This document shows positions 27,001-36,000 of a DNA stretch of 57,930 nucleotides, one piece after another. Source of the stretch: Enterobacteria phage BP-4795. The stretch lies in sequence record NC_004813.1; one strand, given 5' to 3'. Numbering within the stretch: position 1 is the first letter of the stretch; each line of letters opens with the position of its first letter. A program made the position numbers.

Positions 27001-30000
27001 CCGGCGGGTGAATATTCTGAAGGGTGAACAGCGTCGTGTCAGTGGCAGTGCACGTGTTTCCCTCAAGCGTCATATCTGGCTCAGGGATGCCGGGCAGTGC
27101 TGTCTCTGTGGTCGTGTGGTTGACCTCTGTGACAGTGAACTCGATCACCGAATTGCACTTCAGTTCGGTGGTGGTAATGAGGAGACGAATCTCTGGACGC
27201 TCTGTACCGAATGCCATCGACAAAAGTCTGCTCGTGAAGCGGCGGGTGGTATGCCGGACCCGACGCTGCCGGAGGTGTCCGGAGGTCATGGCAGGGCAGA
27301 CGATATCATCGGACTGTGACCCGCCCCGGGGGGGGGATCATCCGGCGAAAAAAACGATCGCTCCGGACACCGCCCCCCCTCTCACGCAGAGAAAAAATTC
27401 CCGTTTCAGGGCAGTTAACATGTTAACTGGCTGTCCGGGCATTTTTGCGGTTTTTATCTTTATTATTCAGTTTGTTGCGTGGAAAAAATGTTAACAGGCT
27501 TTTTCAGCAAATGTTAACCAGGCAGCAGTTAACATTTGCGGCATGAGACGCCGGGAAAAATGGGCTGAACCATACCCGGCTGAGTGCGTTCTGGACCCGG
27601 GAGGAGGCTGTGCTGACAACGCAAAAACGAAAATTTGCGCTGGCGCTCATGTCCGGGAAAAACAAAACAGCGTCAGCCATTGCCGCCGGTTATTCGGCGA
27701 AGACAGCCAGGGTTAAAGGCTCGCAGCTGGCAAAAGATCCGGAGGTGCTTGCGTTTATAGCCCGTAAACAGTGCGAGACGGTGGAGGTGGATGAGGTTCC
27801 TGTTTACCGGCAGAAAAAATCAGAGCAGGAGGATAAACCCCGTCGCCGTGAGGCGGCTGCAATACCACAGCCGGACGAAACAAATCCGGAGATGCCACCG
27901 CCCGTGGTGATATCTCCTGGTATTGAGTATATGGAGGACGGTCTTCCCGATCCGGTGAAAGCGATGGGGCGTCTTCTGGTGGAGAACATTAATACCGACC
28001 CCAGGCTGGCGCTGGATGCGGCTTATAAGCTGGCGCAGTTCACGCACCACAAAAAAGGGGATGCCGGTAAAAAATCGGCAAAAGGTGACGCGGCGAAAAA
28101 AGCGGCTAACCGTTTTGCGGTGCCACCACCACCCCGACTGGTGGTGAATAATGATAATGAGGGCAACGGATGATACCTGTGTGGAGCACGGCCTGCCCGG
28201 ACTGGGCAGAGCGCCTGAAAAAGGGGCTGTCGATTATTCCGGCCCCGATTTATCCGGATCAGGCTGCACATGCACTGGCGATTTTTAAACAACTGCGGAT
28301 TGTGGATGCACCGGGCAGCCCGACGTTCGGGGAGTCCTGCGCACAGTGGGTGTTTGACCTGGTGGCGGCCCTGTTTGGCTCCTACGATGCGCAGACCGGT
28401 GTTCGCCATATCAAGGAAGTTTTTATCCTTATCCCGAAAAAAAACAGCAAGTCCACGCTGGCTGCCGGGATCATGATGACGGCGCTGTTACTGAACTGGC
28501 GGCAGGCGGCGGGCTACACCATTCTGGCCCCGACTGTGGAGGTGGCGGCTAACGCCTTTAATCCTGCGCGGGATATGGTCAGACGTGACGATGATCTGGA
28601 TGACCTCTGCCAGGTGCAGACACATATCCGGACCATCACCCACAGGGTGACGGACACTACCCTTAAGGTGGTGGCAGCCGATCCGAATACGGTGTCCGGT
28701 ATCAAGTCCGTGGGGACACTGATTGATGAACTGTGGCTGTTTGGCAAGCAGTACAAAGCGGAAGACATGTTACGTGAAGCCATCGGCGGGCTTGCCTCCC
28801 GTCCGGAAGGATTTGTGGTGTACACAACCACCCAGTCGAATGAGCCGCCAGCCGGGGTGTTCAGACAGAAACTGCAGTACGCCCGGGATGTCCGTGACGG
28901 CAAAATTCATGATCCGCACTTTCTGCCGGTGATATTTGAACACCCTCCTGAAATGGTGGAAAGCGGGGCTCACCTGCTGATGGAAAACCTCGCCATGGTC
29001 AATCCGAATCTCGGTTATTCGGTGGATGAGGCTTTTCTGTACCGGGAGTACCGTAAAGCCCGGGAGGCTGGTGAGGAAGCATTTCGTGGCTTCATGTCAA
29101 AACATGCCAATGTGGAAATTGGTCTTGCCCTGCGTTCTGACCGCTGGACGGGTGCGGATTTCTGGGAGCAGCAGGGCAGGCGCGTCAGCCTGGACGATAT
29201 CCTGCAGCGCGCTGATGTGGTGACGGTGGGGATTGACGGCGGGGGCCTGGATGATCTGCTGGGAATGTACGTGATTGGCCGTGACAGGGAAACCCGCGAA
29301 TGGCTGGGCTGGGGCCATGCCTGGGCGCATGAAACCGCGGTGGTCAGACGGAAGAGTGAGGCATCCCGGTTTCAGGATTTTGTGGCCTGTGGAGACATGA
29401 CGATTGTCCGTCGGGTCGGGGATGACACGGCGGAAGTGGCGGAGTATGTGCGTCGTATTCATGAGGCTGAGTTACTGGAGCATATCGGTATTGACCCGTC
29501 AGGTGTGGGGCAGATTCTGGATTCACTGGCGGAAGCCGGGATCCCCGACGGAATTGTTGTGGGGATAAGCCAGGGCTGGAAGCTGGGCGGGGCCATAAAA
29601 ACCACCGAGCGCAAACTGGCTGAGGGAGTACTGGTGCATGGTGGTCAGCCACTGATGGCCTGGTGCGTTGGCAATGCCCGGGTGGAGCCTAAAGGTAACG
29701 CCATTCTTATTACCAAACAGGCCAGCGGACGGGGGAAAATTGACCCGCTGATGGCGCTCTTCAATGCGGTATCCCTGATGTCCCTGAATCCGGAGCCGAA
29801 AAAGAAAGAATATGCGGTTTTTTTCATATAACCCTGTTCACCCTGTAACCATCATGGACCGCTGCGGCGGTTTTTTTATTTTCAGGAGGCTGATGTGACT
29901 CTTAAACGGGCCTGCTCCCTGCTGACGGTGAAATCCTTCAGTGAGGATGAGCGGGTGATCACCGGGATTGCGTCAACGCCTTCTCCGGATCGGGATGGTG

Positions 30001-33000: not shown

Positions 33001-36000
33001 TGCCTGCAGACGCTGATTGAGTCCATTGAACTGTTACTGGATGAGGCGCTGGAAACGGGGGAAAACGAGAGTACGGAATTTGATGTCACCACGCTGCTGA
33101 GAATGGACAGTGAGCGGCGCATGAAAACGCTGGGGGATGCGGTGAAAAATACGCTTCTCACGCCCAATGAGGCCCGTAAACGGGAGAACCTGCCGCCCCT
33201 GGCCGGCGGTGATGCACTGTATCTTCAGCAGCAGAACTACAGTCTGGAAGCGTTGTCCCGCCGTGATGCCCGTGAAGATCCGTTCGCGTCGTCCGGTAAA
33301 ACAGCTTCCGTGCCTCAGGCGGTCGCTGCCTCTGACGGTAATAAGGCAATCACTGAAACAGAGCATGATGCGGTGAAGGCGATGTTCAGGGGGATTCTGA
33401 AAAAATGAATGAACGTGAACTGTCCATTATCCGTGCGCTGGGTGAAGAATTTTCCGCAGTGCTGGCGGATTTACAGCGCACATTTGAGGGGAAAATAGCC
33501 GCGCAGGCACAAACGTTTGAAGAAAAACTGGCTTCCCTGTCTGTGGTATTACAGAAGTGCGTGACGGGCGATGATGTGCGTCCGATGCTTGAGCAGATGG
33601 TGAAGGAGGCGGTAAGCCATATCCCTGTTCCGCGTGACGGTCGTGACTACGATCCGGAAGTACTGCAGAAGGCGGTGAATGACGCGGTCGCAAATATTCC
33701 ACAGCCGGCGGACGGTAAAAGTCTCACCCCGGATGATGTGCGTCCGATGCTTGAACAGATGGTGACAGAGGCAGTGAGCCATATTCCTGTTCCGCGTGAT
33801 GGTCGTGACTACGATCCGGATGTTCTGCAGAAGGCGGTGAATGACGCGGTCGCAAATATTCCACAGCCGGCGGACGGTAAAAGTCTCACCCCGGATGATG
33901 TGCGTCCGATGCTTGAACAGATGGTGACAGAGGCAGTGAGCCATATTCCTGTTCCGCGTGATGGTCGTGACTACGATCCGGATGTTCTGCAGAAGGCGGT
34001 GAATGATGCGGTCGCAAATATTCCGCAGCCGGCGGACGGCAAAAGTCTCACCCCGGATGATGTGCGTCCGATGCTTGAGCAGATGGTGAAGGAGGCGGTA
34101 AGCCATATCCCTGTTCCGCGTGATGGTCGTGACTACGATCCGGATGTTCTGCAGAAGGCGGTGAATGATGCGGTCGCAAATATTCCGCAGCCGGCAGACG
34201 GTAAAAGTATCACCCCGGATGATGTGCGTCCGATGCTTGAACAGATGGTGAAGGAGGCGGTAAGCCATATTCCTGTTCCGCGTGATGGTCGTGACTATGA
34301 TCCCGATGTTCTGCAGAAGGCTGTTCTGGATGCGGTGAGTGCCCTGCCGGCTCCGCAGGACGGGCGTGATGCCACTGCACTGGAAATACTCCCTGCCATT
34401 GACGATCAAAAATCCTTTCCCCGGGGCACGTATGCCACACACCAGGGCGGACTCTGGCGGGCGTATGAAAAAACGCACGGGATGCGGGGATGGGAATGCC
34501 TGGTTGACGGGGTGGCGGATATTGACGTCAGCATGACGGGTGAACGGTTGTTCTCTGTGGTGGTCCGGCAGAGCAGTGGCCAGTGTACGGAAAAAACATT
34601 TTCCCTGCCGGTGATGCTCTACCGCGGTGTGTTCAGAGCCGGTGAAACCTACCACCCCGGCGATACGGTGACGTGGGGGGGCTCGCTGTGGCACTGCAAC
34701 AGTATGACCGGTGATAAACCCGGAGAAGCTCATTCATCAGGCTGGACCCTGGCTGCAAAACGTGGGCGGGATGCAGGAGGCGGAAAATGACGGCATTACT
34801 GACGCTGGAAGAGATCAAGGCACATCTGCGTGTCGACCATGACGCGGATGATGACATGCTGATGGACAAGGTTCGTCAGGCTACCGCCGTGCTGCTGGCC
34901 TACATTCAGGGCAGCCGGGATAAGGTGATTCGTGAGGACGGTGAACTGATCCCGGGCGAGGCATTAACCCGGATGAAGGGGGCTGCCATGCGACTGACCG
35001 GGATGCTGTACCGGAATCCGGATCTTGCGGAGCGGGAAGAACTGCTTCAGGGGGAGCTGCCGTTTTCTGTTTCCGTGCTGATTTACGATTTGCGTTGTCC
35101 GACGGTGTTATGAGGAGGGGGAATGGCAATATCTGCAGGTCGTCTGACACAGATGATAAGTGTTCTGAACCCGGTGTTAACCCGTAATGCTGCCGGAGAA
35201 ATGACGGAAGAATGGGTGTCATGCGGGAAAATTCATGCGGATATCCGTGGCAGGAGCAGCCGGGAGCGGATGCAGTCCGGTGCGGAAATGGCGCAGGCGG
35301 AAATCCGCATCTGGGTGCGCGGTCAGTCCGGTCGGGAAATCACGGCAGCGTCACGACTTCATGTGCTGAGTGGTCCATGGCGTGACCGGATCCTGAACGT
35401 TGTCGGGCTGCCCGTGCCGGATGCGACCGGCGGGCGTCTGGAAATTCTCTGTCGGCTGGGAGGGGAAAAATGATCGAAACCCTGCTGGATTTTTCGGGGC
35501 TGGAGGACATCAGCCGCGATTTGCAGCTTCTGAGTGGTGCGGAAAATAACCGGGTGCTGCGTGAGGCAACCCGTGCGGGTGCGAATGTGCTGAAAGAAGA
35601 AGTGGTGTCACGGGCACCGGTGCGCAGGGGAAAACTGCGCCGCAATGTGGTGGTCCTTTCCCGGCGCTCCCGCGATGGCGGTATGGAATCCGGTGTCCAT
35701 ATCCGTGGTGTTAATCCGGACACCGGTAACAGCGATAACACCATGAAGGCGGATAACCCGCGCAATGCTTTCTACTGGCGGTTTGTGGAAATGGGGACCG
35801 TGAATATGCCACCGCACCCGTTTGTGCGCCCGGCATTTGATGTGCGCAGTGAACAGGCGGCACAGGTGGCGATTGCTCGGATGAACCGGGCCATTGATGA
35901 GGTACTGAGACGATGACGGAGGCGGATTTGTATCCTCATCTGGCGCATCTTGCCGGCGGGCAGGTGTACCCGTATGTGGTCCCCCTGCTGGATGGCAGGC

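Follow-up and report, generated by a model that had tools for sequence, protein, structure and literature searches.

In phage HK97 the prohead protease and the capsid protein are encoded by separate genes, in the order terL-portal-protease-capsid. Here we analysed the head genes of Enterobacteria phage BP-4795 (NC_004813.1; "the window" below is this whole stretch, 57,930 nucleotides (nt) in length), in which, unlike in HK97, protease and capsid are joined in one open reading frame (ORF) of 645 amino acids (aa; positions 29895-31832, + strand) and the order is terL-protease/capsid-small gene-portal. The HK97 gp4/gp5 pair and the 645-aa ORF have in common the protease family (PF04586) with its assemblin-like fold and a scaffold that, rather than being a separate protein, is built onto the capsid protein as a helical extension at its N-terminus, and the portals of both phages are of the TIGR01537 type. 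From comparing its sequence with that of relatives, we judge that the 645-aa ORF is quite probably a nested gene with two in-frame products, a long form and a form begun at an internal start.

Nested protease/scaffold genes have been established for phage lambda (C/Nu3) and the herpes simplex virus HSV-1 (UL26/UL26.5), and the nesting of gp17/gp17.5 in the archaeal virus HFTV1 was shown by ribosome profiling; in such systems an in-frame internal start gives rise to a second, more abundant assembly protein with a common C-terminal part (bioRxiv 10.64898/2026.09.13.751334). The BP-4795 gene resembles those of lambda, HSV-1 and HFTV1 in two respects: i) the protease lies at the 5' end of the long ORF; ii) inside the ORF there is an in-frame start codon with a ribosome-binding site (RBS), the use of which we infer here. 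On the other hand, the nested product of those three systems is the scaffold alone, with the capsid protein encoded separately, whereas the nested frame of BP-4795 runs through the capsid to position 31832.

Fusions of protease and capsid are also known. Gifsy-2 and Pseudomonas phage MD8 are described as carrying a single-gene protease-scaffold-capsid arrangement ("tripartite capsid gene"), and thus resemble BP-4795: in each case a temperate lambdoid phage encodes a protease, a scaffold-like part and an HK97-fold capsid in one ORF. However, their protease is ClpP- or lambda-gpC-like (that of MD8 was modelled on ClpP), while the BP-4795 protease is of the unrelated S78, assemblin-fold type: Pfam and NCBIfam profile searches gave no ClpP or S49 match in the 645-aa protein, and no sequence relationship was detected between it and the Gifsy-2/MD8 gene. 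Protease-capsid fusions are moreover a standard annotation in actinobacteriophages and are described as common in siphoviruses with small genomes. The NCBIfam model for a "prohead protease/major capsid protein fusion protein" (NF045541) matched aa 48-287 only, and its score of 53.5 bits was far below the cutoff of 525; thus the 645-aa ORF belongs to a different subfamily. Within our incomplete coverage of the literature, we found no report of an internal start for the Gifsy-2, MD8 or actinobacteriophage fusions, and we claim no priority. Another comparison is Burkholderia phage vB_SBP33 (PV072774), which is ~40% identical over 96% of the 645-aa protein and encodes protease (1905-2543) and capsid (2557-3891) as separate genes, the start of the latter corresponding to Met193 in BP-4795.

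Start of the long form and a proposed internal start in the protease-capsid ORF

Translation of the long form is assigned to GTG 29895-29897, which stands behind the Shine-Dalgarno (SD) sequence AGGAGG at 29884-29889 and a 5-nt spacer (whole signal 29884-29897, + strand; predicted anti-SD duplex, -10.3 kcal/mol). The internal start that we propose by comparison with relatives consists of TAAGGA at 30455-30460, a 10-nt spacer and ATG 30471-30473, the codon of Met193 (30455-30473, + strand).

Sixteen relatives have protease and capsid split, and there the stand-alone capsid gene begins at a codon that aligns exactly with Met193. The capsid N-terminus of vB_SBP33, MTIAEKIKQLQ, aligns with MNIGEQIKSFEN at Met193 of the window, and Met1 of the stand-alone capsid proteins P0201, P0231, P0256 and P0268 likewise aligns with Met193; among the representatives as a group, stand-alone capsid proteins start at query positions 193-196. 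The residue is kept where the two parts are fused: position 193 is Met in 116 of 141 fused representatives (and Val in nine more). Among close relatives matching the motif, it is Met in 119/119.

Start-signal statistics were derived from 66 non-redundant fused genes. The codon aligned with Met193 was ATG in 61, GTG in three and TTG in two of these genes, and a 4-nt SD core was present at -17 to -5 in 61/66; elsewhere in the codon series its frequency was 14%. At the internal start the anti-SD duplex averaged -7.27 kcal/mol, compared with means of -3.19 kcal/mol for the background, -3.21 kcal/mol for other in-frame ATGs and -5.98 kcal/mol for the split genes. Moreover, purines made up 89-95% at positions -12 to -9, the GG core and the start codon were 7-8 nt apart in 45/66 genes, and the second codon after the internal start was A-rich. 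The residues encoded over the SD motif differ among relatives (KE, EE, KG, QE or KK) and lie inside a linker that is hypervariable in length and sequence; as read from these alignments, the constraint at the internal SD thus acts on nucleotides.

RNA folding pointed in the same direction. Across the 66 fused genes, the 50 nt around the internal start were weakly folded (-7.5 versus -14.1 kcal/mol) and low in GC (47.6% versus 61.9%), and in 98% of the genes the site had less structure than the ORF on average. The internal site of the window itself is AT-rich, folds at -3.5 kcal/mol per 50 nt (ORF mean, -14.3 kcal/mol) and falls in the least structured 2% of the ORF. Such signals typically mark a functional initiation region, and at Met193 they have been kept inside coding sequence over deep divergence.

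A different role for the SD-like motif can be envisaged, namely a programmed ribosome pause that aids folding of the protease before the scaffold emerges, with no initiation taking place. The motif does lie inside the coding region, just past a domain boundary and in a disordered linker, as such a pause would have it; but a pause has no need of the start codon 7-10 nt downstream (66/66 of the set), of the exact match of that codon to Met1 of the stand-alone capsid genes, of the A-rich second codon or of the local minimum in RNA structure. We therefore consider a pause without initiation highly improbable.

For the nested gene, we infer the following scheme of start use, co-assembly, cleavage and the role of a downstream hairpin. 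Initiation at GTG 29895 would give a 69.0-kDa protease-linker-scaffold-capsid polyprotein, and initiation at ATG 30471 (Met193) a 48.2-kDa scaffold-capsid protein, which would correspond to a normal capsid precursor of the HK97 type. If assembly proceeds as in HK97, the two forms may together build a procapsid around the portal, their scaffold regions turned inward, and the long form would bring the protease inside as a covalent passenger; a protease so carried would not need a separate targeting peptide. The protease would then cut off itself, the linker and the scaffold regions, with a predicted cut after Lys331, and the remaining 33-kDa shell protein would expand as DNA is packaged. A stem-loop past the capsid stop codon would probably end or stabilise transcripts, such that the portal and connector genes are expressed below the level of the capsid gene.

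The contrary possibility is an obligate polyprotein: only the 645-aa protein would be made, a protease would sit on every shell subunit, and the internal ATG and SD would be relics of a former gene boundary. Consistent with this possibility, the ORF is continuous and annotated as a single gene everywhere, the Gifsy-2 and MD8 single-gene arrangements are described without internal starts (in those parts of the sources that were accessible), and the SD at the internal site of the window is moderate. However, relic signals should decay, yet the start codon, the SD core, the spacing, the AT-richness and the low structure all persist at 38-77% identity, and they do so within a linker that varies freely in sequence and length around them. 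The mean SD is, furthermore, equal to or stronger than that in split relatives, where its function is obligatory, and the frequent switching between fused and split forms is easiest to explain by a capsid start that is used in both. An obligate polyprotein thus seems to us unlikely.

Several points nevertheless weigh against a nested gene: i) the internal SD of the window is of moderate strength (-6.2 kcal/mol, 10-nt spacer; 26th percentile among codon positions of a G-rich ORF), and the case for the window's internal start is one of comparison with relatives; ii) a few fused relatives have no clear SD, or have a non-start residue at position 193; iii) the 66 genes are mutually related, so that p-values overstate their independence, the qualitative pattern being clear nevertheless; iv) a procapsid of full-length subunits alone is physically possible; v) the predicted cleavage at Lys331 is drawn from conservation and from likeness to Lys103/Ser104, the cleavage site of the HK97 capsid precursor; vi) our literature search found no proteomic, N-terminal or ribosome-profiling data on two products for BP-4795 or members of the family, nor, whether for S78 protease-capsid fusions or for phages 2851, BP-4795, 1717 or YYZ-2008, did it turn up a paper dealing with the proteome of virions, the N-terminus of the capsid protein or internal initiation.

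Weighing these points against the conserved start signals, we still favour the nested gene for BP-4795, and we lean towards the broader proposition that the many genes of this family currently called "major capsid protein" or "protease/capsid fusion" are nested two-product genes, in which a conserved internal RBS would supply the bulk scaffold-capsid protein and the upstream start a protease-carrying minority. Such use of the nested start, if true, would explain the free interchange of fused and split forms.

A fusion gene in an unusual place, as described in the earlier note on this DNA, is by itself an ordinary finding, being already annotated and part of a widespread type of head module. 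The new part is the well-supported prediction of a conserved nested capsid start in a very common phage gene. If this prediction is true, many prophage gene annotations need an added nested coding sequence, and both the setting of the protease-to-capsid ratio and the entry of the protease into the shell without a targeting peptide would be explained. It would also be a bacterial addition to the nested-gene scheme common to lambda, herpesviruses and archaeal tailed viruses, and would extend the expression logic of lambda C/Nu3 and UL26/UL26.5 to the capsid protein itself.

A second in-frame ATG occurs at 30543 (Met217; 30530-30545), preceded by a strong GAGGAGG but with a spacer of only 3 nt, in structured RNA. 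Met is found at this position in only 69/141 relatives; Met217 is probably not a start site, and we do not propose it as one.

Domains and predicted processing of the 645-aa protein

The ORF list and profile searches divide the GTG-initiated product (69.0 kDa; 29895-31832, + strand) into protease, linker, scaffold region and capsid domain. The earlier note had read the protein as an HK97-type protease, a coiled-coil scaffold-like segment and an HK97-fold capsid region; profile searches and structure models bore out this three-part make-up (the segment being helical), with Peptidase_S78, Phage_capsid and TIGR01554 all scoring above their cutoffs. Calling the gene a fusion is right in so far as it is a single uninterrupted ORF, but the label is probably incomplete, since the capsid part appears to keep an internal translation start. 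At the level of the whole protein, PHROG 617 ("major head protein") matched aa 1-639 with E = 2e-260, while a sequence search of the PDB returned, as its only and weak match, the capsid of Bxb1 (E = 0.0017).

The HK97-type (S78, assemblin-fold) prohead protease domain occupies aa 18-155 (29946-30359, + strand). Pfam Peptidase_S78 (PF04586) matched aa 48-153 with 32.9 bits (cutoff, 21), whereas TIGR01543 (proheadase_HK97) scored 46.5 bits, below its cutoff of 59; thus the protease is a member of the S78 family but, at the NCBI threshold, no equivalog of HK97 gp4. The candidate catalytic residues are His55 (30057-30059), Ser110 (30222-30224) and Glu135 (30297-30299; all + strand), whose roles are suggested by family motifs, and the fused representatives keep them in 141/141, 140/141 and 139/141 cases respectively. 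An inactive protease remnant was considered and rejected, the catalytic residues being essentially invariant among fused representatives. The predicted fold of the domain is herpesvirus-assemblin-like; a profile search found no solved structure related to it.

An AlphaFold2 model built on a 111-sequence alignment reached a mean predicted local distance difference test (pLDDT) score of 86.8. Its parts were a globular domain at aa 18-155, a disordered stretch at 156-189, a helical hairpin at 195-262, short helices at 293-331 and a C-terminal HK97 fold. The model made from the single sequence had a mean pLDDT of 38.5 and was unusable save for the helical hairpin, for which pLDDT was >90 even then. 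The linker, aa 156-192 (30360-30470, + strand), is predicted to be disordered (pLDDT <50 at aa 156-189) and is hypervariable, with alignment columns consisting mostly of gaps or variable residues. It is followed by the scaffold ("delta"-like) region, aa 193-331 (30471-30887, + strand), which in the AlphaFold2 models comprises the hairpin of aa 195-262 and three short helices within 293-331. The hairpin forms a helical N-terminal extension ahead of the capsid N-arm.

The remainder, aa 332-645 with the stop codon (30888-31832, + strand), is the HK97-fold capsid domain, as seen also in its predicted fold. Pfam Phage_capsid (PF05065) matched aa 386-635 with 52.6 bits (cutoff, 24.2) and TIGR01554 (major_cap_HK97) aa 204-584 with 76.6 bits (cutoff, 27.5), the latter alignment beginning at model position 3. 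The boundary between scaffold and capsid is provisionally placed by a conserved K331/(S,A)332 pair: position 331 is K or R in 149/151 sequences and is followed by A, S or T. From this pattern, Lys331/Ser332 is the best candidate for the protease cut, and cleavage there is predicted to leave a mature capsid protein of 33.1 kDa.

Gene order and integrity of the ORF among relatives

BP-4795 is a long-tailed lambdoid Shiga toxin (Stx) prophage, and the 645-aa ORF is its head-shell gene. The stretch from this ORF to the end of the portal gene (29895-33408) is 99.8% identical to that of the Stx1a-converting phage Stx1_121427 and 95-98% identical to that of many long-tailed Stx phages (2851, YYZ-2008, 1717 and others). 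Of 5,426 complete E. coli genomes, 1,255 had a match to the module, often more than one per genome; at least 80% of 29895-33408 was covered at one place in 1,244 complete E. coli genomes, and by 90 phage records. Phage records carry the 645-aa gene as "major head protein/prohead proteinase".

Beyond E. coli, proteins of 643-650 aa with 73-77% identity were found in Salmonella, Enterobacter, Klebsiella, Serratia, Pantoea and Kosakonia. When 1.84 billion cluster representatives were searched exhaustively, 1,191 clusters came out at E <= 1e-30, the best 150 of which were mostly full-length fusions of 630-680 aa; counted at 50% identity with the same E threshold, the family has >1,000 clusters. 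At identities of 38-77%, relatives in the Proteobacteria and in a few other phyla keep the fused architecture.

For comparison of whole loci, 80 related loci with 38-71% identity were fetched from one-genome-per-species contigs (81 related loci counted in all), from Alpha-, Beta- and Gammaproteobacteria and a few metagenome-assembled genomes of other phyla. Together with two near-identical E. coli copies and the window, they gave 84 sequences, 68 of which have a single uninterrupted ORF. Protease and capsid are separate genes in the other 16, four of which have an in-frame stop codon as the sole separator. Split forms were scattered on a rough neighbour-joining tree of the capsid, which required at least ten changes of state.

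The presence of split versions in some relatives, and the homopolymer indels known nearby in the same module, might suggest that the window owes its single ORF to a frameshift error of sequencing or assembly between two genes; a frameshift splitting the ORF was one outcome by which the earlier note would have been overturned. However, one 90%-identity cluster of exactly this length (E. coli) comprises 9,916 sequences, at least 80% of 29895-33408 is covered by the 1,244 complete E. coli genomes and 90 phage records given above, and one ORF is retained in the 66 non-redundant fused relatives. With the cluster of 9,916 members and the one ORF in 68/84 sequences there is no sign of a frameshift error, and the probability of such an artefact is negligible.

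The genes around the ORF are listed in RefSeq as HNH endonuclease, terS, terL, "phage major capsid protein", hypothetical protein, portal, head-tail connector and head closure. The terminase large subunit gene, terL (28170-29831, + strand; Pfam TerL_ATPase and TerL_nuclease; "terminase large subunit" in RefSeq), adjoins the capsid gene on its 5' side, and both the ORF list and the domain searches placed the 645-aa ORF between terL and the portal gene, as had been noted before. That this order is an oddity, on the other hand, did not hold: the portal gene lies 3' of the protease/capsid gene in 73/81 related loci and terL lies 5' of it in 57/81, with no locus of contrary order in either case. 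The order terS-terL-protease/capsid-small ORF-portal is kept wherever those genes were detected in the 81 loci, and vB_SBP33 matches it (terS, terL, protease, capsid, small ORF, portal, connector). Thus capsid-before-portal is the defining trait of a large and widespread head-module family and no local rearrangement.

The HNH endonuclease gene lies just 5' of terS (26954-27319), and a minority of the related loci also have such a gene in the upstream region. The match of the window's gene to IscB (NCBIfam) was weak, at 29 bits against a cutoff of 175, with only the HNH domain in common. In the Stx2 phage 1717 (locus L003, 1091-2401), IS629 is inserted in terL, and the capsid-portal module downstream is otherwise intact.

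Hairpins, the small gene, the portal and the 461-aa gene

Two hairpins flank the capsid gene, and neither has an Rfam match. The first, at 29856-29883 (+ strand), is a terminator-like hairpin with a T-run, found by a consensus scan (a 7-bp stem, then TTTTTTATTTTC), which takes up part of the 63 nt that separate terL from the capsid gene, directly before the capsid SD. T-rich tracts occupy the equivalent place 5' of the gene in Morganella, Proteus and Phlomobacter relatives. The second, at 31847-31868 (+ strand), directly after the capsid stop codon, is a GC-rich stem-loop with a 9-bp stem and a GUGU loop (minimum free energy, -22.5 kcal/mol for 31825-31885). A strong stem-loop after the capsid gene is kept in position, with unrelated sequences, in most relatives with a readable spacer (loci L002-L083), in a few cases with a T-run; it is probably an end or a stabiliser of transcripts that would keep capsid expression above portal expression.

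Between capsid and portal lies a conserved small gene (31877-32098, + strand; 73 aa, 8.2 kDa, isoelectric point 9.1). The 73-aa product matched PHROG 829 (E = 4e-39) and had no Pfam match; it is 35% identical to a 58-aa ORF at the equivalent place in vB_SBP33, and jackhmmer recovered its family at 42 loci, where it likewise lies between capsid and portal. The family shares about 40 conserved residues at the N-terminus, with a motif of roughly Y.GR.L..GD.FEA..RDAR.L.A..KA, and the basic tail is variable. The 73-aa ORF is thus a real gene. As the earlier note had stated, and as the ORF list confirmed, it overlaps the portal gene by 55 nt at its 3' end. The small ORF of relatives most often ends about -5 to +4 nt from the portal start (in vB_SBP33 it overlaps the portal gene by 4 nt), and the 55-nt overlap is an 18-codon extension present only in the E. 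coli Stx-phage lineage, to which the C-terminal 18 residues are specific.

The portal gene (32044-33408, + strand; 454 aa) is assigned by TIGR01537 (351.7 bits against a cutoff of 112.05; E = 4e-105), by PF04860 (274.3 bits against 39.1) and by its conserved N-terminus. Its start had been called ambiguous because of the overlap with the small gene, a doubt that did not survive: ATG 32044 is the earliest start codon in the portal frame, GGAG (32032-32035) stands 8 nt upstream, and the N-terminus MWNLLRRTRK aligns with the short basic N-termini of relatives (MFSFFRKKP, MRLFGF..R.K). All annotation pipelines inspected use ATG 32044. Alternative starts were rejected, with no in-frame start upstream and downstream GTG codons unsupported.

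A further doubt concerned the 3' end of the portal gene, which is flagged "frameshifted" in RefSeq; in phage 2851 an 859-aa portal is annotated. The G-run at 33389-33393, just before the portal stop codon (33406-33408), has five Gs in the window and in phage 1717 but six in phages 2851 and vB_EcoS_phi330. The additional G puts the portal into one reading frame with the 461-aa gene that follows, which accounts for the 859-aa "portal", for PHROG 2271 and for the RefSeq flag. Portal and downstream gene are separate in 60/61 relatives, and E. coli clusters of the 454-aa portal have thousands of members, versus one to six for the fused forms. We rejected the reading of the portal as a frameshifted pseudogene, given the separate genes in 60/61 relatives. 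Two misleading features of Stx-prophage annotation are thus cleared up: the flag that calls the portal "frameshifted", and the doubt about where the portal starts.

The 461-aa gene (33405-34790) overlaps the portal stop codon through ATGA and is mis-annotated "portal" in several phage records; a homologue follows the portal in 59 related loci. The protein has a coiled-coil N-terminus, a variable middle made up of 4.6 tandem 162-bp repeats (33570-34321), which collagen triple-helix repeats replace in some homologues, and a CBM_5_12-like C-terminal domain (E = 6e-8, above cutoff, for the Morganella homologue). Its architecture is fibre-like.

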